Shown one piece after another: positions 2,321 to 20,807 of a DNA stretch of 64,000 bases. The notes under the pieces were generated by a model, which saw only the letters and a list, made by a program, of their open reading frames with translations, ran no database searches and had not been told where the DNA came from. A program made the translations under genes and the position numbers. This DNA is from Candidatus Magasanikiibacteriota bacterium. GTDB taxonomy: Bacteria; Patescibacteriota; Patescibacteriia; Magasanikbacterales; GWA2-37-8. Position 1 is the first letter of the stretch. Each line of letters opens with the position of its first letter. Location of the stretch: contig JAGOQR010000001.1 in assembly GCA_017991415.1 (NCBI GenBank), forward strand, positions 109,385 to 173,384, written 5' to 3'.

Positions 2321-3142
2321 TTACAATAATCCCATATACCAATGCACAATACTCTCTCCCCAAGACAAGCAAACAAAAGTGCCGATGGCTAAATAGGTAC
2401 CAAATGGGGTAGCTGACATGAGTGTTTTTTTCTTTGCCACTAATAAAACCACACTACATAGAGCACCCACAACATACGCGATAAAAAGCGCCACAAAAAC
2501 AACTGGCCAACCAAGCAATAGGCCCATCATAAGCCCCAGGCGCACATCTCCCCCACCTATCCATTTGCCCTTAGAGATAACAAACTGCAAAAGAAAAAAC
2601 CCGCCTGCAGCGAGCGATCCAATAAGCATTGAAGTTAAGTTATAGTCTAAATAAAAATTAAAAAATAAAGCAGCAACTGAACCGACCCAAACGAGCTCAG
2701 ATAAAATTTCTTGGTACAAATAATCGTAGACAAAAATAGTAATGAGCAAAATTGAGAAAGCGATGTCCCGTAAAAAATGTACTGGATTAAAATTAAATGT
2801 ACTAAGGTTCTGCCAGGTAACAAGCAATAAAATAAGCGGCGTAATTATTTCTACCATAATAAAATGTCTCGGAATAGGATTTTTACAGGTGCGACACTTT
2901 CCTCCGAGCACTAAAAAACTAATGACAGGTATATTTTCATACCAAGCTAATTGACGTCGACAGATAATACACATACTTCTCCCCGTAGTAATCCGAAAGT
3001 TTTCTCTCGTTCGCCAAACCCAAGCATTTAAAAAACTGCCGAAAGAAAGCCCGAGCAAAAAGATAATTGGGTAGAGAAGATCGCCAAGAGAAAAAAGATA
3101 ATACATATATTTTTTGAATAATACCCATTGTACCATAGTCAT
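2321..3142 (-). CDS. pilD: Prepilin leader peptidase (A24 family, PilD-like)
   Basis: 273 aa polytopic membrane protein. N-terminal CxxC...CxxC zinc motif (CIICRRQ...CRTCKNPI) typical of prepilin peptidases. Confidence 0.8.
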   Translation of the reverse strand: MTMVQWVLFKKYMYYLFSLGDLLYPIIFLLGLSFGSFLNAWVWRTRENFRITTGRSMCIICRRQLAWYENIPVISFLVLGGKCRTCKNPIPRHFIMVEIITPLILLLVTWQNLSTFNFNPVHFLRDIAFSILLITIFVYDYLYQEILSELVWVGSVAALFFNFYLDYNLTSMLIGSLAAGGFFLLQFVISKGKWIGGGDVRLGLMMGLLLGWPVVFVALFIAYVVGALCSVVLLVAKKKTLMSATPFGTYLAIGTFVCLSWGESIVHWYMGLL

Positions 3143-3198
3143 AAAAAAACAAAAACCCTCCGAAAAGAAGGTCTTTGTTTTTCTAAAATATAGAAATC

Positions 3199-3633
3199 TT
3201 AGTCGGCAATTCCAGATGGACTGAGAGTAACTCCGCCACTGAGGCCGTTCATAGTAGTTTCCAAGGTAGCAGTTACACTATATGAGCTTGAAGCTGCAGT
3301 ATAGACGTAAGACTGTGTTCCAAGTGGGTCTGATGGAACTTGACCCATGTAAGGGTTAGCACACCCGGCTGTACCGAAACCAGAGGCATTAAGACAAGCG
3401 TAGTTGGTACTTCCTAAAGTAACGCCAGAACCGGTTGGATATGCGGTTTGATCGGTATAATAAAGTTCTAAAGCGGTTTGCAATTGTTTTAAATCTGAAA
3501 GACGTCTCGCATCGCGAGCTTTTTGTCTTGCATTTCCCAAAGCTACAACAGCCAAGGTTGACAATAAACCGATTATAGCTATTACTACCAACAACTCAAT
3601 TAAAGTAAAGCCTTTTGCATTCATTTTCTTCAT
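3199..3633 (-). CDS. Type IV pilin / pseudopilin
   Basis: N-terminal class III signal KGFTLIELLVVIAIIGLL (prepilin cleavage/methylation motif). 144 aa. Confidence 0.8.
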   Translation of the reverse strand: MKKMNAKGFTLIELLVVIAIIGLLSTLAVVALGNARQKARDARRLSDLKQLQTALELYYTDQTAYPTGSGVTLGSTNYACLNASGFGTAGCANPYMGQVPSDPLGTQSYVYTAASSSYSVTATLETTMNGLSGGVTLSPSGIAD

Positions 3634-3707
3634 ATTTTCACCCCCTTTCTATTATGTAACATAAAATTTTATAAATCAAAATAAAAACTCAAAATATTAT
3701 ACCACAA

Positions 3708-4091
3708 CTATAGCTTTAATAATTTTCTTACTTTATCCACAACCTCGGAAGGTTTGAAATGGGTTTTAATAAGATAATCAGCAGCTCCTTTTTCTAAACC
3801 GCGCTGCACATCGTCTTGTTGACCCAGATTAGTAAGTAAAATTATGGGGATATCCTTGCTTGCATTGTCGGATTTAATTGCTTCTAAAACTGAAAAACCA
3901 TCTAGTTTTGGCAACAAAATATCGAGCAAAACTAAATCTGGCATTTTTTTCTTAATGTCAGTTACCGCTTTCTCTCCATCGTTTGCCATACTTACTTTAA
4001 AACCTTCCATCTCAAATTTTTTCTGATAAATTTCTGCTAAAAAAAGATCGTCTTCGACAATTAATATATGAGTTTGCTTGCTTGAAGGCAT
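3708..4091 (-). CDS. Stand-alone response regulator receiver domain (CheY-like)
   Basis: ILIVEDD...DLVLLDILLP...K pattern of a REC domain. 127 aa, sits inside the pilus cluster (PilH-like position). Confidence 0.75.
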   Translation of the reverse strand: MPSSKQTHILIVEDDLFLAEIYQKKFEMEGFKVSMANDGEKAVTDIKKKMPDLVLLDILLPKLDGFSVLEAIKSDNASKDIPIILLTNLGQQDDVQRGLEKGAADYLIKTHFKPSEVVDKVRKLLKL

Positions 4092-7518: not shown

Positions 7519-8523
7519 ATGAAGAACTTGTTTTGGTCCATCTTGACGATGGCCGCCATCATGCTCAGTCTCAGCGCGTGCGACGACTACCAAGTGATGC
7601 CGCACAGCACCTGCACCCAGGACAGCGAGTGCCCAAACACCAGCGTGTGCATCGAGAATTCTTGCGTGCTCCAAGTACCGCTCACCTGCGTGGAGCTCGG
7701 CTGCCCAAATGGCACCGAGTGCCAAGATGACGTATGTGTTGAGTTGGCGCCGCCACACAATGACTGCGATGCCTTTCAGTGGATGACGACTTCCCAGTGG
7801 TATTGCAACTATACTGAGGGAGAACCAGCACCAGAACCGTGGATTTGCCATCTCAATACCACAGACGGTACTGCAAGCGATGGCAGCTGCAACATTCAAT
7901 GCGCTGGCAACTTCTGGCTACCAACCCAGGAGTTCGATATCGACATGAACGCATCGCCGCCGCAGCTAAAAACAGACTACTACGGTCGAGAGTTTACATG
8001 TACCCAATACGTGTACATACCTCCATCGGCAACCTGTGGTATTGCTGTTCAGGTTCCAAATAGCCTTTCGGTGTTTGTTCAGCCGACTGGCAACGCAAAC
8101 CTGCTCTGGTTCGACTTCGTCAAAGTCGGGCCAGATTCACCTGAATGTTCTCCAGAAATCGTCAGGATCGAAATCTTGGAGATGGACAACGCGTTTGGCT
8201 TTATCCCGAATCCAAAGATGCAGATCGGAATTAACAACTCCTTTCTCGTCGCTCCTCTAGCAAACTATGGGGAAGCCGATAGTCTCCTGCCATGGTGGAG
8301 CAAGACTTACTACCAATGGGATGGCGTCGCGCCAGTCGGCAAGAAGACCACTATCCTGTTCAACTGCGATGGCAACTGCGGTCCGCCCAACATGCCGTCT
8401 AACCCCATCGTGCTTCACACCAAACTCTTGCGCTACTGGTGGAGGAAGAACCCAACAGCGCCAACGGTCTCTGGCAACGCGGGGGCAGAACACACGATCT
8501 ACTTCACCCCTCCTACCCTCTGA
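7519..8523 (+). CDS. Cysteine-rich secreted lipoprotein (high-GC island 1)
   Basis: Signal peptide with lipobox LSLSAC. About 58% GC against a ~35% background. An N-terminal cluster of CxxxC motifs resembles EGF-like Cys repeats. 334 aa. The many overlapping ORFs on both strands are GC artefacts. Confidence 0.6.
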   Translation: MKNLFWSILTMAAIMLSLSACDDYQVMPHSTCTQDSECPNTSVCIENSCVLQVPLTCVELGCPNGTECQDDVCVELAPPHNDCDAFQWMTTSQWYCNYTEGEPAPEPWICHLNTTDGTASDGSCNIQCAGNFWLPTQEFDIDMNASPPQLKTDYYGREFTCTQYVYIPPSATCGIAVQVPNSLSVFVQPTGNANLLWFDFVKVGPDSPECSPEIVRIEILEMDNAFGFIPNPKMQIGINNSFLVAPLANYGEADSLLPWWSKTYYQWDGVAPVGKKTTILFNCDGNCGPPNMPSNPIVLHTKLLRYWWRKNPTAPTVSGNAGAEHTIYFTPPTL

Positions 8524-14592: not shown

Positions 14593-14622
14593 CTTGACTT
14601 GCGCTATTTCTATGATACAATC
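14593..14622 (+). promoter_or_regulatory. Candidate promoter for tRNA-Gln
   Basis: TTGACT-N16-TACAAT located ~30 nt upstream of the tRNA 5' end. Confidence 0.45.
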
Positions 14623-14653
14623 CTAGACGCTTTGCAGAACTACAATACAAACA

Positions 14654-14724
14654 CTCCGAGGTGGTCTAATGGTAGGACAGCAGACTCTGAATCTGCTTAT
14701 CTTGGTTCGAATCCAAGCCTCGGA
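14654..14724 (+). tRNA. tRNA-Gln (anticodon CUG)
   Basis: Hand-folded cloverleaf. 7/7 acceptor stem TCCGAGG/CCTCGGA, D-arm GTCT-AATGGTA-GGAC, anticodon stem GCAGA/TCTGC with loop CTCTGAA (U33, C34 U35 G36, A37). T-arm CTTGG-TTCGAAT-CCAAG, discriminator A. CCA is not encoded. Confidence 0.85.
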
Positions 14725-14878
14725 ACAACTCTGAAAAAGCCCCAATTTTTTCGACAATTCGCCAGCCCCGTTTGGCTAAGAATTCAATTTTTGCCACTCA
14801 GAACAAAGTTAAAGGGAGTGAGCAGACAATATAATTGAGCCAAATCTAGGAAATAAATTAAACGATTAATTAAAATAT

Positions 14879-14901
14879 AAAACCGCGCAATGCGCGGTTT
14901 T
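14879..14901. terminator. Intrinsic terminator after tRNA-Gln
   Basis: AAAACCGCGCA-A-TGCGCGGTTTT. Confidence 0.7.
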
Positions 14902-15007
14902 ATTATGAGTGAGGCGTACCTTTCTAGCGCCATTGATGAATAGCAGTAACAATCAGTTCTCTTTCTCCGCAAGCTCTCTATAGACCAGTATCTTTTACTC
15001 AAGTCCC

Positions 15008-15316
15008 TCATTTGCCTTGTATGTTGTACTTAGGTTTGTACTTCGGAATTTCGGCAAGCTCATGCTTTTCCGTCTCTGCGACGGTGTCGCACTGTTCATA
15101 ACCGAAATGGGTGACGTCAGGCCATTTTCTCTCACTCAGGTGTTGAAGCAATCTGCCGCGCACACCACCATCAGCAACCGATTTGCCAATATAGTAAATG
15201 GTAAGCTTTCCTTCCGGTGTTTTAACGCCACAGTAATACACGCCAATAACATTAGAATTCCAACTGGTGAGAGTTGTGGAATCAAATGGATATGGACCTT
15301 TGAATGCGTAAATCAT
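15008..15316 (-). CDS. GIY-YIG nuclease domain protein
   Basis: GVYYCGV...IYYIGKS...R...LQH...E pattern of the GIY-YIG fold. 102 aa, sits immediately downstream of the tRNA. Confidence 0.65.
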   Translation of the reverse strand: MIYAFKGPYPFDSTTLTSWNSNVIGVYYCGVKTPEGKLTIYYIGKSVADGGVRGRLLQHLSERKWPDVTHFGYEQCDTVAETEKHELAEIPKYKPKYNIQGK

Positions 15317-15464
15317 AATCTCTTTATCTTCTCGTTTTAGTTGGTAGACAGTTCGACTAGGCCGCTACTTATTACCTTGTACTTTAGCATAAGTGTTTTT
15401 AGTGTCAAGTTTATCCACACCCAATGTTTGATTTTTAGACACTATTAGTGTATATTGTTAGTAT

Positions 15465-16160
15465 ATGAGAAAAAACTATCATATTGCCATAAAGCAATTG
15501 CGTATACAAAGAGGATTTTCGCAATCAGAGATTGCCCAAAAAATGGGTATCTCTCGCACCTCATACATCTCTTTTGAACAAGGTAAGCGTGATATTAGCC
15601 TATCCGAAGCGGCTCAACTAGCCGATATTTTTGGTATTTCCTTAGAAGAAATGGAGAGCGGTACTATTGCAAATTATGAAAAGTACAAAGAAATGATTTT
15701 AGCCTTTTTGCGGTGTGTTGCATCAGTTGATGGAAAAATTCCAAAAACCAAATTAGCCAAGTTGGTTTATCTTGCTGATTTTTCTTGGTTTTATAAACAT
15801 TTGGAAAGTATGAGCGGGATGCAATACCGTAAAATACAATATGGCCCAGTACCGGATAGTTATTTTCGGGCTATTGATGAGCTGGAGGAGTCGGGTAAAA
15901 TCGTAATTGACAGAAAAGAGAAAGAGGGAAGAGAGATGTTGCTCATTTCCGAATCGCAAAGTAATATAAATAAAAAAGTTTCTACATTATTTAAAGACGA
16001 GCTGTCTTTGATTAAAAATATTGCAAAAAAATGGAAAGATAAAAAAACAAATGAAATTGTTAATTTTACGCATAATCAGTTGCCGTATTTGATATCCCGC
16101 GATAACGAGATCATCCCGTATGAATTGATTACACAGGAGGATCCGGAGTATGTCTACTAA
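15465..16160 (+). CDS. HTH-XRE regulator fused to a Panacea (SocA-like, DUF4065) antitoxin domain
   Basis: The N-terminus has an XRE helix-turn-helix (QSEIAQKMGISRTSYISFEQGKR). The C-terminal segment KLAKLVYLADFSWF...YGPVPDSY resembles the Panacea/DUF4065 antitoxin domain. Its stop overlaps the start of the downstream gene by 11 nt. Confidence 0.6.
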   Translation: MRKNYHIAIKQLRIQRGFSQSEIAQKMGISRTSYISFEQGKRDISLSEAAQLADIFGISLEEMESGTIANYEKYKEMILAFLRCVASVDGKIPKTKLAKLVYLADFSWFYKHLESMSGMQYRKIQYGPVPDSYFRAIDELEESGKIVIDRKEKEGREMLLISESQSNINKKVSTLFKDELSLIKNIAKKWKDKKTNEIVNFTHNQLPYLISRDNEIIPYELITQEDPEYVY

Positions 16161-16542
16161 CTATAGTGTTGTATTTGCAGATTTTGCCGAAAGGCATTTC
16201 ATCAAAAGTTTTAAAAAGAAGTATAAAAATGCGTGGGATTATACGCTAGCCGCTCTCCGTTCTGAATTTGAAAATTTTGATTTATTGTTTCAAAAGAGCA
16301 TCGCAGAAAAAATTTACCAATCCTCCGTATTAGATATTTGTAAAACAGAATTTAGGATTGCTGGAACAGATGTGTCGCGGCGTGCATCAGGAAATCGTTG
16401 TATTGTGGCTATTCACAAAGAAACAAATACTGTCCATGTTCTTTTAGTTTACCATAAAAATGATATTGGAGATGATAACGAGACATCAAAATGGAAGAGT
16501 GTAATTAAGGCAAATTTTCCGCAATATAAACAAATTCTATAA
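16150..16542 (+). CDS. Candidate toxin, RelE/ParE-superfamily-like (divergent)
   Basis: 130 aa. C-terminal pattern NRCIVAIHKETNTVHVLLVYHKND parallels the RelE/ParE C-terminus (GYRLVYQVIDEKVVVFVISVGKRE). Translationally coupled to the Panacea antitoxin. Confidence 0.45.
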   Translation: MSTNYSVVFADFAERHFIKSFKKKYKNAWDYTLAALRSEFENFDLLFQKSIAEKIYQSSVLDICKTEFRIAGTDVSRRASGNRCIVAIHKETNTVHVLLVYHKNDIGDDNETSKWKSVIKANFPQYKQIL

Positions 16543-16645
16543 CCTTCTAAAAATTTTTGACCATTAAATATAATAAAATTAAGAACTTAATTTTTTTATT
16601 AAAGGCAAGGTTTCGCTATGTTAGAGCCAGGCGGCTAATTAAAAG

Positions 16646-17056
16646 TTGCATATGCTTACAGAAAATGATGTAGTTAAAATCTTGGCTATTTATTTAGAAA
16701 AGGAGGGTTATAAAATAATTCAAAAGTTAACTACTTTAGAAAAAGGTTTTGATATTGTTGCAGAAAAAAATAGAATAACTCTATATATAGAAGCAAAGGG
16801 AGGAACGAGCTCAAAGAAAGGGTCACGTAGGTATGAAAAGCCGTTTACTAAAAATCAAGTCGGTACACATGTTTCCGTGGCAATAATGGCTTCTTTGAAA
16901 ATATTATCCAAGGGTAATAAAAAGTTTAAAAAAGTAGCAATGGCATTTCCAGATAATGAAAATCATAGGGCTGTAATTGCTCCAATAGCGCCATTGTTAA
17001 AAAAAATTGGAATTATGATATTTTTGGTAAATGAAAATTTAGTCACTAAGATATGA
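16646..17056 (+). CDS. Small PD-(D/E)xK nuclease-fold protein
   Basis: GFDIVAEKN...LYIEAKG gives a D-x(n)-E-x-K arrangement. 136 aa. Confidence 0.45.
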   Translation: MHMLTENDVVKILAIYLEKEGYKIIQKLTTLEKGFDIVAEKNRITLYIEAKGGTSSKKGSRRYEKPFTKNQVGTHVSVAIMASLKILSKGNKKFKKVAMAFPDNENHRAVIAPIAPLLKKIGIMIFLVNENLVTKI

Positions 17057-17229
17057 GAAATCAAAACATAATCATCCTAAAGATAATTATTGCGGTTAGT
17101 GCTATTTTGTCGGTTCTATTTTTTACTTTATATAAATGGAAGACGCTACGTCATTTGAAAAAGAAACAATATATCGTGAAGCTATAAAATATCAGTACGA
17201 AGTCGCTTTTTGGAAAATATGGACCTTCG
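17053..17229 (+). CDS. Small membrane protein (58 aa), translationally coupled to the PD-(D/E)xK gene
   Basis: ATGA start/stop overlap with the preceding gene. Single hydrophobic helix IIILKIIIAVSAILSVLFFTLY. Below the ORF-track length cutoff, found by manual translation. Confidence 0.25.
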
Positions 17230-17280
17230 GCGCCTTTGTCTTTGCCGGTGCATTGCTTTTAATAATTGTTATACCAAAGG

Positions 17281-17372
17281 AAAGAAAAACTTGAAATCGT
17301 CAAAAAGCGCGCTCACCTGGGCGAGGCGGGCGGAATTCCTCCCCAACCCCCTCCTTCCGCCCGCTATTCCGT
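17281..17372 (+). repeat. Left copy of a ~90-bp GC-rich inverted repeat pair (partner at 59896-59981)
   Basis: AAAGAAAAACTTGAAATCGT...GGCGGGCGGAATTCCTCCCCAACCCCCTCCTTCCGCCCGCTATTCCGT. Contains a 9-bp GC stem CGGGCGGAA/TTCCGCCCG. About 88% identical to the reverse complement of 59896-59981. Confidence 0.8.
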
Positions 17373-17410
17373 TAAATCCGTTCGAATTTTCGTATATTCA
17401 CTGAACCAAT

Positions 17411-17444
17411 AAAAAAACAGCTATATAAGCTGTTTTTTTATTTT
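17411..17444. terminator. Intrinsic terminator
   Basis: AAAAAAACAGCTTATATAGCTGTTTTTTTATTTT-type hairpin (ACAGCT/AGCTGT stem) plus a T-run. Confidence 0.65.
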
Positions 17445-17509
17445 ATACACATGGCAATACTGCGCTCTAACTTATTGACACAGCGAATAATTTACTTTAT
17501 TTTATAGCC

Positions 17510-18160
17510 ATGGACATCAAAATCGAAATCCTCATCGGCGCTCCTACCTCGGTTCTGGGCGCCCTGGGTATTCGAGGCGCCAAGATTACCCTCACACCAA
17601 GGCAAAAGGGTAAGAGCCTCCCCCGCTTATGGATTGACAAAAAAGAGCACTTCTCCTACTTCTTCACCATCGAAGAGGCCCAAAAAGGACTAGACCGCAT
17701 CCTGATTTCTAGACCTAGGATTAAGATCAAGATTTTGCGGAGGCTGCGCAAAGCGGGTCTGTTCTGGGATATGGAGTCAGTCCTGTCCTACTGCCAGAAA
17801 CTCGCTGTTATCAAAGATTCAACATACGACTTCGTGAAGTGCACGCGTTGCGCCTACGCGTCGCTGGTGCCCCACGGCTGGATAGTCACAGAAGGGAAAC
17901 TGATCCAGACAAAGATTCCGATACTGCTCCACCAACAGGTCACAAACCTGAAAGACCTCATCTTTAGGTTCTGTGCCGAAGGAGTCTGGCTTGGCGAGAT
18001 CCCTCTCAAAGCAGCCCTTTGGGTGATCCATCAAGGCGCAAAGGCGCAAATGGGAGCAGACTCTCGAGGCCTTCTAAGACTGCTGCTACAAGACCCAATT
18101 CGACACCTCCGGGGGCCACTTCCAACAGACCACCACATCTGTCGCGAAACAGGTCCATAA
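17510..18160 (+). CDS. Hypothetical protein (high-GC island 2)
   Basis: 216 aa ORF at about 55% GC with no recognisable domain. TTGACA-N19-TTTTAT lies directly upstream and there is no SD. It is the least convincing of the seven high-GC islands. Confidence 0.4.
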   Translation: MDIKIEILIGAPTSVLGALGIRGAKITLTPRQKGKSLPRLWIDKKEHFSYFFTIEEAQKGLDRILISRPRIKIKILRRLRKAGLFWDMESVLSYCQKLAVIKDSTYDFVKCTRCAYASLVPHGWIVTEGKLIQTKIPILLHQQVTNLKDLIFRFCAEGVWLGEIPLKAALWVIHQGAKAQMGADSRGLLRLLLQDPIRHLRGPLPTDHHICRETGP

Positions 18161-18290
18161 ACTTCAATCTCTCTGTACGGGGAGATCGGCAATACCAATT
18201 TCAAGCGTGGAGGCCTTGAAAAAACCTTGTCAGCTGCCGCTACCAGCTGAAATTTCCAATGAATATCATGTATATCATGGTAACTGTTGG

Positions 18291-18330
18291 GAAAAAAACA
18301 TCCCATGTTTAGCATAGGATGTTTTTATTT
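18291..18330. terminator. Intrinsic terminator
   Basis: AACATCC...GGATGTT hairpin followed by TTTTATTT. Confidence 0.5.
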
Positions 18331-18411
18331 ACCTTTAATAAACAATTTTTGAATCATATGGTACAATAGGCGGACAATGCCTAGGCTTCATTAACTTAAT
18401 AATTACACTCT

Positions 18412-19059
18412 ATGGACTATAAAGTAATAACTCAAAAAATCTTAGATATTCATACCACAGAAGGTTTTGATGAAATTGATTTTACCGACCATTTAGAAGA
18501 TTTTTTTCATTTAAAATTGGAAGAAAAAATGCAAGTAACACAAGAACACATTATAGAAATAACTTATTTTATCTTCCAAGAAAAATCTGGTGTCATTAAA
18601 ATAGAAACATCGGAAATAGAAAATGATCCTACGTACTATGATAAAAAACGGGAGGAAGTAGATGACCAAGAAGAAGGTGCTCGTGAAATCAGCAATGACA
18701 ATGAACTAACCCCTATCGAAGTAATAATTGGCGGAGAAAAAGATATACTTTTATACCAACTACTTTCCAAATTTGATGAATTACGTGATGATTTTGAAGA
18801 AATAATACAAGGGATTGATACCAAAAAAGAAAGTACCTCTGAAACAGTACTCTTAATAGACAAAACATTAACAGCTTACGAAGCTCTCATACAAAAAATT
18901 ACTGGAAAAAAAGAAACTATTTTTGAAATTAAAAATTTACTAAACACCTACCTAAGAGAGTACGCAGCCGAAATACACCGAAAAGAAGAACCTTCTGACA
19001 TAAAACAAGAATTTCCTGAGGCAAAAGTAATTAGACTGCCTCCTTTCCTAAAGAAGTAG
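18412..19059 (+). CDS. Hypothetical acidic protein
   Basis: 215 aa, rich in Glu/Asp, with no motif recognised. Confidence 0.4.
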   Translation: MDYKVITQKILDIHTTEGFDEIDFTDHLEDFFHLKLEEKMQVTQEHIIEITYFIFQEKSGVIKIETSEIENDPTYYDKKREEVDDQEEGAREISNDNELTPIEVIIGGEKDILLYQLLSKFDELRDDFEEIIQGIDTKKESTSETVLLIDKTLTAYEALIQKITGKKETIFEIKNLLNTYLREYAAEIHRKEEPSDIKQEFPEAKVIRLPPFLKK

Positions 19060-19063
19060 CCCA

Positions 19064-19855
19064 CTAAAATTTCTTTCCTTCTAAAAATAGAAACAGTGGA
19101 AATTCTTTGCGAGCTTTATCTTCGGCAGCAAATCGAGGGCCGCGCGTTGGCTCTCGATGCGAGATCCACTCTTCGCATTTGGTTATACCAAAACCATTTT
19201 TACGAAACATTTTAAAATACCATTGAAGTGGTCGATGAAACGAAACTGTTTTTTCTGACTTTTTTTGACCTGGATGCATATCTATTTCTATTTTTGCCTC
19301 AGATAAATACTCATCCATACGACGATATTGCACTTTTATCTTTTCATCCCAACCCCAGCTAGAAATTTTTGGCCCACGAAATGCTGGGTGATTGAGCACT
19401 ACATACATGCTCCCCTTTTCTTTTAAAACTCGATTGCATTCTTGCAATACTCCGTCTACATTTTGAATGTTCTGTAGCGCAAGTACTATTAAAATAGAAT
19501 CAACAGAATTGTCTGCACAAAATTGAATATCATCGGCAGGAGAAACATAGTATTCTATATTTGTTTTGGCCAAGCCCCGTGACGAAGCATCTTTGGAAAT
19601 ACCACCGTGTTTTTTTGCTAAATTTATAAGCTCCGAAGAAATATCTGAAGCAATGACATAGGCTCCTGTTTCGGCAATCACTCGAGAAAAAAAGCCTTGC
19701 CCACATGCCAAATCTAAAACAACTTGGTTTTTACCCACATTCATAGAACGCATTAAATTTGGCAAAATAACTCGACTCTGAAACGAATCATCATCTTTTT
19801 CGAGCATGGTATCGTACCACTGCGCAACCTTACCCCAAGAGGTATTTTTTGACAT
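19064..19855 (-). CDS. Class I SAM-dependent methyltransferase
   Basis: SAM-binding motif I VLDLACGQGFFS. 263 aa. Confidence 0.75.
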   Translation of the reverse strand: MSKNTSWGKVAQWYDTMLEKDDDSFQSRVILPNLMRSMNVGKNQVVLDLACGQGFFSRVIAETGAYVIASDISSELINLAKKHGGISKDASSRGLAKTNIEYYVSPADDIQFCADNSVDSILIVLALQNIQNVDGVLQECNRVLKEKGSMYVVLNHPAFRGPKISSWGWDEKIKVQYRRMDEYLSEAKIEIDMHPGQKKSEKTVSFHRPLQWYFKMFRKNGFGITKCEEWISHREPTRGPRFAAEDKARKEFPLFLFLEGKKF

Positions 19856-19937
19856 AAAATAAGAATTAACAACAGGTCTATTCTAACCCAAATAAAGTCC
19901 ACCGTCAATCCAACAAACTTGCTAAAATAGGCTAAAA

Positions 19938-20807
19938 ATGATACTATTTTGCCATATGACACATATTATTGATGGCAAAAAAATTGCAACAAAAATAGAA
20001 AAAGAGGCTGCTAGGCAAGTAACCCTACTCAAGGCTCGAGGCATTGTGCCAAAACTAGCAGTTGTTTTGGTTGGTCAAGATAAGCCATCCCTTACCTATA
20101 TAAGCCGAAAAAAACAAGCCGCCGAACGAGTTGGCACTGATTTTGCCTTGCATCAATTTCCAAAAAATATTTCTAAAGAAGATCTCATTGCCGCTGTTAC
20201 AGACATTCAAAAAGATCCTGCTCTTACTGGCCTCATTATCCAACTTCCATTACCAGAACGATTGTACAACTCCGATGTTTTAAATACTATTAACCCTGCC
20301 ATTGATGTAGACTGTCTTACCGATAGCAATATTGGCAAGCTAGTCATGAAAACAAATCTTATAGAACCTCCGACTCCTTGGGCTGTAATTAAAACGCTCA
20401 AAGAAATAAAATTCAAATTAGCTGGTAAAAATATTACGATTGTTGGTGCAGGTGCACTGGTTGGCAAACCGCTGGCCATTATGATGGTAAACGAACTAGC
20501 AAGCGTAACAACCTGCAACAATCACACCCAAAATCTTAAAAAGAAATGTCTCGAAGCAGATGTAATAATTTCTGCTGTCGGCAAAAAAAATCTCATCACC
20601 GCCGATATGGTAAAAAAAGGTGCTATAGTAATTGATACAGGTATTGTCTATGTAGACGGCAAAATGCATGGCGATGTCGACTTCAGCCCAGTTGTCAAAA
20701 AAGCAAGCTTCATTACACCTACTCCAGGCGGTATTGGCCCTATTACCGTGGCCAAACTACTTCTTAATACAGTTACTTGCGCAAAAAAAATAAATAAGAT
20801 ACTGTAA
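19938..20807 (+). CDS. folD: Bifunctional methylenetetrahydrofolate dehydrogenase/cyclohydrolase FolD
   Basis: IIDGKKIA..., VGQDKPSLTYISRKKQAAERVG, and the NAD-binding TPGGIGPITVAKLL motif. The true start is probably the internal Met at ~19956 (MTHIIDGKK). Confidence 0.85.
   Translation: MILFCHMTHIIDGKKIATKIEKEAARQVTLLKARGIVPKLAVVLVGQDKPSLTYISRKKQAAERVGTDFALHQFPKNISKEDLIAAVTDIQKDPALTGLIIQLPLPERLYNSDVLNTINPAIDVDCLTDSNIGKLVMKTNLIEPPTPWAVIKTLKEIKFKLAGKNITIVGAGALVGKPLAIMMVNELASVTTCNNHTQNLKKKCLEADVIISAVGKKNLITADMVKKGAIVIDTGIVYVDGKMHGDVDFSPVVKKASFITPTPGGIGPITVAKLLLNTVTCAKKINKIL

Follow-up and report, generated by a model that had tools for sequence, protein, structure and literature searches.

Panacea (DUF4065) was defined as a hyperpromiscuous antitoxin domain by Kurata et al. 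(2022, PNAS 119:e2102212119). In that work, 343 of the Panacea-containing antitoxins (PanAs) carried an N-terminal helix-turn-helix (HTH), and the partner toxins (PanTs) included RelE-superfamily (MqsR-like) and ParE toxins. PanAs were found to form complexes with diverse toxins and to neutralise them, and some PanAT pairs were accompanied by conserved third, "accessory" genes, nucleases among them. One group of Dataset S1 in the same work, pT15/T14, associates an HTH-PanA with a toxin whose representative matches HigB-2 at 99.7% in HHpred, the two genes standing in antitoxin-toxin order. Its members include entries from Ca. Saccharimonas aalborgensis and a TM7 genome (junction at -11), from Bacteroidetes (-4 and +2) and from Cryosericum (-8). 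Here we analyze a locus in a 64,000-nucleotide stretch of contig JAGOQR010000001.1 from a Candidatus Magasanikiibacteriota bacterium, referred to below as the window. We propose, with a probability of about three in four, that positions 15403-16542 of the window form a self-contained type II PanA/PanT toxin-antitoxin (TA) operon with a HigB2-like toxin. An earlier note on this DNA had described the pairing as rarely described and had placed it in an accessory islet next to a tRNA-Gln gene. The first statement was overstated, as the combination of an HTH-PanA with a HigB-2-like PanT is already catalogued as pT15/T14; the second is taken up below.

Both genes lie on the plus strand and were taken from the list of open reading frames (ORFs): panA (15465-16160) encodes an HTH-Panacea protein of 231 aa and panT (16150-16542) a RelE/ParE-fold protein of 130 aa. 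The two ORFs overlap by 11 nt (ATGTCTACTAA), as had been seen in the sequence before, and an AGGAGG is located just upstream, inside the end of panA. Through this overlap and its internal AGGAGG, translation of panT would be coupled to that of panA. A scan of one genome per species returned 80 species-level loci, with relatives in 170 genomes. Every one of the 80 loci had a homologue of PanA, with 50-91% identity, adjoining the toxin gene on its upstream side; 78 of these homologues were full-length and two were cut by a contig end. At the gene junction, 46 loci have an 11-nt overlap, 20 have one of 14 nt and 12 have a gap of 2-3 nt, all well inside the 100 nt allowed between a panA gene and a same-strand partner. 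Exact look-ups of homologues added seven further contexts, and each time an HTH-Panacea gene was found directly upstream of the toxin gene, in neighbourhoods that were otherwise unrelated (ribosomal protein genes, tRNA synthetases, integrase-flanked Verrucomicrobiota elements). Nearly all hosts are Patescibacteria, the candidate phyla radiation (CPR), including Saccharibacteria, Parcubacteria/Paceibacterota and Magasanikbacteria; a few are Verrucomicrobiota or Bacteroidia. Across CPR classes, identity is 50-90% for both proteins. In a more distant relative (L014), DNA similar to the window is limited to 15403-16469, exactly the promoter and both genes. The unit of inheritance is panA and panT together with their promoter, and the other genes nearby are unrelated passengers. 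This unit would move horizontally as a whole, mainly among Patescibacteria. In the Verrucomicrobiota loci L004 and L006 (2025-8396) the pair is located between two tyrosine-integrase genes and beside an ArdC-like antirestriction/MPTase gene. Being flanked by the two integrase genes, the pair is carried there by an integrative mobile element outside the CPR.

The panAT promoter region (15403-15456, plus strand) was delimited by a promoter scan and by comparing the upstream regions of 79 loci. In the window, a -35 element TTGATT (15428-15433) and a -10 element TATATT (15451-15456), the latter 8 nt from the ATG, are accompanied by two operator-like palindromes of 17 bp, O1 (TGTCAAgtttaTCCACA, 15403-15419) and O2 (TGTTTGattttTAGACA, 15425-15441), and O2 overlaps the -35. 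Of the 79 upstream regions, 49 contained a palindrome pair of the same type, TGTCAA-N5-TTGACA, where 0.18 would be expected from shuffled sequences; the 100 nt upstream of the operon were conserved across the phyla represented. A TATACT-like -10 started at -12 to -15 in 54 of the 79 loci. Since this element ends only about 6-8 nt ahead of the ATG, the transcript is probably leaderless or nearly so. The locus combines, as type II TA operons do, a DNA-binding domain on the antitoxin with palindromes that overlap or flank the -35 and are predicted to be operators. We infer that the N-terminal XRE-type HTH of PanA, as a dimer, binds these two TGTCAA-N5-TTGACA-like operators; PanA bound to the one overlapping its own -35 would then repress its own synthesis.

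The two domains previously ascribed to the 231-aa protein were both recovered, the search with the DUF4065/Panacea model having been run, and both exceeded the Pfam gathering scores: HTH_3 at aa 9-62 (54.4 bits, cut-off 23, E 1.3e-14) and PF13274 SocA_Panacea at aa 97-206 (53.5 bits, cut-off 25.7, E 5.4e-14, covering 110 of the 113 profile positions). PanA is laid out as an N-terminal XRE-type HTH, a linker, the Panacea domain and a conserved, acidic C-terminal tail. In an alignment of 79 orthologues all these regions, the tail included, were about equally conserved. The HTH resembles in sequence those of the 434 repressor, of C-proteins and of HipB. We would expect the Panacea domain, the conserved tail or both to bind and neutralise the toxin.

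Scans of the 130-aa PanT against Pfam, NCBIfam and PADLOC found no match, those of Pfam and NCBIfam not even when E was allowed to reach 10; in PHROGs there were two weak matches only, to families whose function is not known (E 0.007 and 0.013). Searches of PDB sequences with phmmer and with a profile of close homologues returned no matches. The family itself is large and tight. A word-indexed search collected 651 proteins that are all close to 130 aa in length and lack Pfam domains, and an exhaustive search gave 217 representatives of clusters at 50% identity. An AlphaFold2 model computed from a 42-sequence alignment was of high confidence (predicted local distance difference test, 91.4; predicted template modelling score, 0.85). 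It predicts a strand, three helices, four strands and a C-terminal helix, in keeping with the N-terminal strand, two or three helices and antiparallel sheet of three or four strands of the RelE/ParE fold. When a diverse profile of 100 members was compared with PDB sequences, Vibrio cholerae HigB2 provided the only matches below E 0.03 (E 0.019), the family stretch SGNRcIv...iLlvYsKnd being placed opposite GGSRIIYY...LLTIYGKNE. In HigB2, alanine substitution showed that R51, R64, Y82 and K84 are required for inhibition of translation (Hadzi et al. 2017, PMC5416850). Residues R83, Y101 and K103 of PanT align with HigB2 R64, Y82 and K84, and are found in 99, 98 and 99 of the 100 representatives, respectively; K65, on the strand preceding this aligned stretch, is conserved in 99 and E111 in all 100. 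In the E. coli RelE protein the active-site residues are K52, K54, R61, R81 and Y87. A YoeB-like Glu/Arg/His triad (E67, R83 and H102) was also considered for PanT and was rejected, E67 and H102 varying across the wider family.

Because of its predicted fold and of these conserved HigB2-like residues, PanT would be a ribosome-dependent mRNase of the HigB2/RelE type rather than a gyrase poison of the ParE type. Most likely, free PanT would enter the ribosomal A site and cleave the mRNA being translated by means of K65, R83, Y101 and K103. What the sequences show directly are the domains of PanA, the fold and conserved residues of PanT, the strict pairing of the two genes and the palindromes in their promoter, whereas toxicity of PanT, cleavage of mRNA, neutralisation by PanA and binding of PanA to the operators are inferred. 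The alternative that the 130-aa protein is a ParE-type toxin, a class also found among PanA partners, which poisons DNA gyrase and does not cleave mRNA, appears very unlikely in view of the HigB2-like catalytic residues. The RelE/ParE assignment made in the earlier note thus holds for the predicted fold and for these residues, and fails for the Pfam RelE/ParE models, which remained unmatched.

Several points weigh against reading the pair as a TA operon with a HigB2-like toxin. The window PanT matches none of the RelE/ParE models of Pfam, including PF05016, PF06296, PF06769 and PF05015, at E up to 10, and only one of 100 PanT relatives touched PF06296 (E 0.014). A comparison with E. coli RelE by hhalign was not significant (probability 0.3%), although it paired the SGNR motif with SGYR. 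The counterpart of HigB2 R51, position 69, is K or R in just 51% of the members, and the equivalence of the PanT and HigB2 residues is probable, resting as it does on a hidden Markov model alignment at E 0.019 and not on a superposition. Several PanTs showed no toxicity in E. coli or had a toxicity that their own PanA did not relieve, and every T14 entry of Dataset S1 is labelled "notest" (Kurata et al. 2022). The window family is very probably group T14, an assignment based on matching architecture, overlap classes and taxa; look-ups of its clusters yielded no RefSeq accessions. In multidomain PanAs, finally, neutralisation often does not depend on the Panacea domain, which may instead act as a sensor (Ernits et al. 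2023).

The last point leads to a reading in which PanA does not neutralise its partner stoichiometrically. PanA could act, like SocA, as an adaptor handing the toxin to ClpXP for proteolysis, which would make the system a type VI one, or its Panacea domain could sense a trigger, for example a phage, so that the operon would be an abortive-infection or defence switch and not an addiction module. PanA does belong to the SocA_Panacea family and has a weak match to the NCBIfam SocA equivalog (14.5 bits, cut-off 190, E 0.022); a sensory role of Panacea in multidomain PanAs has been proposed (Ernits et al. 2023), and the Verrucomicrobiota pair between integrase genes stands beside an ArdC-like gene. 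However, cultured phages, plasmids and IMG/VR viral contigs yielded no relatives of panT, PADLOC has no model that fits the toxin, and no defence phenotype is known. Kurata et al. (2022), moreover, report direct PanA-PanT complexes for every pair tested. We consider this reading unlikely, and a PanA that binds and neutralises the toxin is retained as the preferred one.

A further gene shares the control region of the operon. It is transcribed divergently from panA (15008-15316, minus strand, from the ORF list) and encodes a stand-alone nuclease domain of the GIY-YIG superfamily, 102 aa long. The window protein had no Pfam match and so did not reach the gathering score of PF01541. The GIY-YIG signature was invariant or nearly so in 33 homologues (G24-V-Y26, Y41-I-G43, R54, H58, E80/E85 and N97), 16 of which gave weak matches to PF01541 (best 1.2e-4) and 17 to DUF123. 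The profile of the family matched the UvrC GIY-YIG domain 1yd6 (E 5e-5), with YIGK, the Glu and PKYN aligned. The protein had been called GIY-YIG before, rightly so at the level of the superfamily. The divergent GIY-YIG/panA/panT block was also found in L012, the closest relative of the window, and in L127-L130, where the genomic context is different. Of the 80 species-level panAT loci, 79 have no such gene; because of this it is not a general TA partner but a lineage-specific divergent neighbour that shares the control region. At 2556-3812 of locus L131, a GIY-YIG gene of 49% identity is divergent from genes for an XRE HTH protein and an M78 (ImmA/IrrE-like) peptidase, near a serine recombinase. 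On mobile elements, a divergent XRE regulator seems to be the habitual companion of small GIY-YIG proteins of this kind.

A promoter facing the GIY-YIG gene is predicted on the minus strand; its -35, TTGACA, is the reverse complement of TGTCAA (15403-15408), the left half of O1. Co-regulation of this gene by PanA is possible, because the block recurs, the left half of O1 matches the predicted -35 in this way and the L131 genes are likewise divergent. In the sub-lineage of the window, then, the operon could be a three-gene unit in which the HTH of PanA controls both the RelE-like toxin and the divergent GIY-YIG nuclease, the latter as a second effector or an accessory. The block is found in three lineages and two contexts, the L131 arrangement and the relation of O1 to the minus-strand -35 are of the kind that such a unit would show, and accessory genes including nucleases are described for some PanAT pairs (Kurata et al. 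2022). But the TA pair does not need the GIY-YIG gene, as shown by the 79 loci that lack it, the three lineages are close (at least 76% identity), so that their linkage could reflect shared ancestry, and the minus-strand promoter is a consensus match only. We regard the three-gene unit as unlikely, and the two-gene panAT operon as the functional module.

The left edge of the variable region is formed by tRNA-Gln (anticodon CTG; 14655-14726, plus strand; ARAGORN, and Rfam tRNA at 69 bits). In the reading closest to the earlier note, the whole of 14727-17444 would be one integrated accessory or defence island at this tRNA gene, including an abortive-infection pair made of a nuclease and a membrane peptide. 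The closest relative (L012/L013) was informative in this respect. It shares four conserved segments with the window, separated by unrelated DNA. Homology starts at the last ~7 nt of tRNA-Gln (CTCGGAA) and continues into the 3' flank (L012 3940-4017 and L013, aligned with window 14719-14790). The second segment, 14901-16541, holds the GIY-YIG gene, panA and panT at 80% identity, the third is a GC-rich repeat (17284-17416, 86.6%), and the fourth contains methyltransferase and folD genes (19070-20801, 71%). Between them, 16542-17283 with the PD-(D/E)xK gene and the small ORFs is absent, and 17417-19069, including an orphan ORF of 52% GC, is replaced by other DNA. To the left of the break, L012/L013 carry genes for DUF5655, N6/N4 methyltransferase, DUF6996/6997 and SDH-type protease proteins, the L013 contig has a large serine recombinase gene a few kb further upstream, and ARAGORN detected no intact tRNA in 15 kb of the relative. 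The break at the tRNA end, the different genes on its left and the missing tRNA suggest that an element integrated at, or replaced, tRNA-Gln in the genome of that relative.

These data are in favour of a site prone to exchange, and relatives also differ in what lies between the tRNA and the methyltransferase/folD genes. GC content, too, changes along the region, from 0.30-0.34 across 16000-17250 to 0.51-0.53 at 17500-18250. Yet no integrase or recombinase ORF was found between 14727 and 19060, nor does the window as a whole contain an integrase, and 14600-20000 yielded no direct repeat of the tRNA-Gln 3' end. The genes are independently distributed, and of those in the proposed islet only panA and panT stay together, as they do at all 80 loci. 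Beside the nuclease gene the small ORFs lack conservation, and the nuclease family has no PADLOC match. The locus, as the mosaic of segments shared with L012/L013 indicates, is plastic, the tRNA end being a lineage breakpoint and the genes independent acquisitions rather than one island. Comparative data have therefore largely refuted the island reading, which we now hold to be extremely improbable. Of the integration hotspot invoked before, the breakpoint at the tRNA 3' end and the variable content are confirmed, whereas an integrase or an attachment repeat is missing; the islet as a single functional or integrated unit is not sustained.

Downstream of panT lies a gene for a PD-(D/E)xK-fold nuclease-like protein. 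It had been read as encoding 136 aa (16646-17056) from a TTG. All 44 homologues begin with MLTEN, which makes the ATG at 16652 the almost certain start and the product 134 aa long (16652-17056, plus strand). The protein contains the motif D34-x12-E47-x-K49 within an alpha-beta-beta-beta-alpha-beta core of the D...(D/E)xK type, so that the previous superfamily assignment is confirmed. The ATGA overlap at its end (17053) is real; the ORF that begins there stops at 17187 (17053-17187, plus strand) and encodes a peptide of 44 aa with one hydrophobic segment. All ORFs of the earlier inventory were located where claimed, except that this peptide had been given as 58 aa. A second small ORF of 52 aa (17136-17294, plus strand), also with a hydrophobic segment, overlaps the first in another frame. 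Gene callers had called neither of them on the public copies of the contig. By tblastn the 44-aa ORF gave no significant match beyond identical copies, and no homologue was found in any fetched locus; the 52-aa ORF gave marginal matches only (E 0.01-0.05). In another Magasanikbacteria genome the nuclease gene, 72% identical at the DNA level, has no peptide ORF after it. Here, and likewise in L095-L097 and L114, the repeat found at 17284 in the window comes next, some 55 nt or less from the nuclease gene. More distant nuclease homologues have other neighbours. There is thus no evidence that either small ORF is a gene, and the abortive-infection module formerly suggested from the nuclease and its membrane peptide is not supported, the peptide ORF being 44 aa long, absent beside the nuclease gene of the relative and without a homologue in the fetched loci. 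Together with the PD-(D/E)xK gene, the small ORFs form a separate insertion outside the TA module.

The right-hand junction of this insertion is marked by a copy of a dispersed repeat (17284-17416, plus strand) that is GC-rich although the genome is AT-rich. Its core is a hairpin formed by GCGGGCGGAA, a C-rich loop of 19 nt and TTCCGCCCGC, and it is 86.6% identical to L012 7003-7132, a value above that of the neighbouring coding DNA. Metagenome stretches with the exact core numbered 24, a single 104-kb contig carrying at least 4 copies, and a second copy is present in the window at 59980-59895 (minus strand). As a dispersed element, the core can be written as GGGCGGGCGGAA, a C-rich loop of 19 nt in which CCTCC occurs twice, and TTCCGCCCG; it is flanked by conserved 5' modules (e.g. 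GAAAAACTTGAAATCGTCAAAAAGCGCGCC) and 3' modules (e.g. CCCGTTATCGGGCCCCCGTAAATTCCGTTCG). Further copies were seen in L095 (3461-3533) and in L103-L126. The repeat usually occurs 40-170 nt past the stop of a co-oriented gene, and at the present locus it is found at insertion/deletion junctions. Folding of the RNA gave z of about -2.1 to -2.3 for the plus strand and about 0 for the minus strand. No Rfam family matched the repeat. It could be an element resembling repetitive extragenic palindromes or miniature inverted-repeat transposable elements, a stabiliser in 3' untranslated regions or a small RNA; it is not part of the TA system.

With this repeat in mind, a broader scheme can be formulated for the sub-lineage of the window, in which PanA is a shared repressor or sensor that acts from a single divergent control region over two effectors, a RelE/HigB2-like mRNase and a minimal, stand-alone GIY-YIG DNA nuclease, the whole working as a dual-nuclease defence switch within an islet that was assembled piecewise, with the GC-rich repeat marking the junctions between cassettes. 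We judge this scheme improbable. If true, a three-gene dual-nuclease switch would be a kind not previously described for Panacea systems.

Two hairpins frame the region discussed so far. A perfect 13-bp GC-rich hairpin with A/T runs on both flanks (14877-14903, found by inverted-repeat and terminator scans) is a bidirectional terminator between tRNA-Gln and the 3' end of the GIY-YIG gene, and falls within the block conserved with L012 and L127. A perfect 15-bp, A/T-flanked hairpin (17408-17442, inverted-repeat scan) is a bidirectional terminator that closes the region, and the end at 17444 chosen in the earlier note coincides with it. Beyond this point, 17475-18330 has 51-53% GC in a genome of ~38% GC. 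This segment is bounded by a promoter-like site (TTGACA-17-TATTTT, 17475-17503) and a hairpin terminator (18294-18326), and is missing from the locus of the closest relative. The high-GC stretch 17250-18250 was examined as a candidate structured RNA, which was rejected: no Rfam family matched, and it holds an orphan ORF of 216 aa (17510-18160). The latter had no match in Pfam, NCBIfam or PADLOC, a non-significant one in PHROGs (E 0.2) and no phage or plasmid relative. The segment has the look of an orphan gene that was acquired recently. Another patch of high GC (50-53%), at 7519-8523, encodes a Cys-rich protein of 334 aa that starts with a signal- or lipoprotein-like sequence (MKNLFWSILTMAAIMLSLSAC...); like the segment at 17.5-18.2 kb, it is compositionally foreign.

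The kind of system proposed here, its combination of domains and its likely mechanism are all already known. The locus provides a concrete candidate for the HigB2-like branch of Panacea TA systems, for which predicted catalytic residues and operators can now be named, and it presents this branch as mainly an element of CPR/Patescibacteria. To our knowledge, the TA and defence biology of these reduced-genome epibionts has received almost no experimental description. The toxin family has no Pfam model and its members are therefore annotated as hypothetical everywhere, so that a model of the family would annotate hundreds of genes.

Among known systems, SocAB of Caulobacter (type VI) shares with panAT the Panacea/SocA domain of the antitoxin. 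It is otherwise unlike panAT, since SocB is an inhibitor of the replication clamp without a RelE fold, and SocA has no HTH and is a ClpXP adaptor. The archaeal and E. coli RelBE systems and YefM-YoeB have toxins without detectable sequence similarity to PanT and an antitoxin of a different family; in addition, the Glu/His acid-base pair of the YoeB type is not conserved in the PanT family, where E67 and H102 are variable. In comparison with HigBA2 of V. cholerae (HigB2 belonging to PF06296; PMC5416850), PanT is ~20 aa longer than HigB2 and the sequence similarity is marginal (E 0.019). The antitoxins differ in their organisation: HigA2 is small, with a disordered N-terminal neutralising segment and a C-terminal HTH, whereas PanA has an N-terminal HTH followed by the Panacea domain. 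The likeness is closest with pT15/T14, which has in common with the window pair the Panacea domain with an N-terminal HTH, the gene order, the overlap classes, a HigB-2-like toxin, and hosts among Saccharibacteria and Bacteroidetes. Whereas T14 comprises ~17 RefSeq entries, the family described here extends to 651 proteins and 170 species genomes, is centred on the CPR and carries a conserved promoter/operator region.

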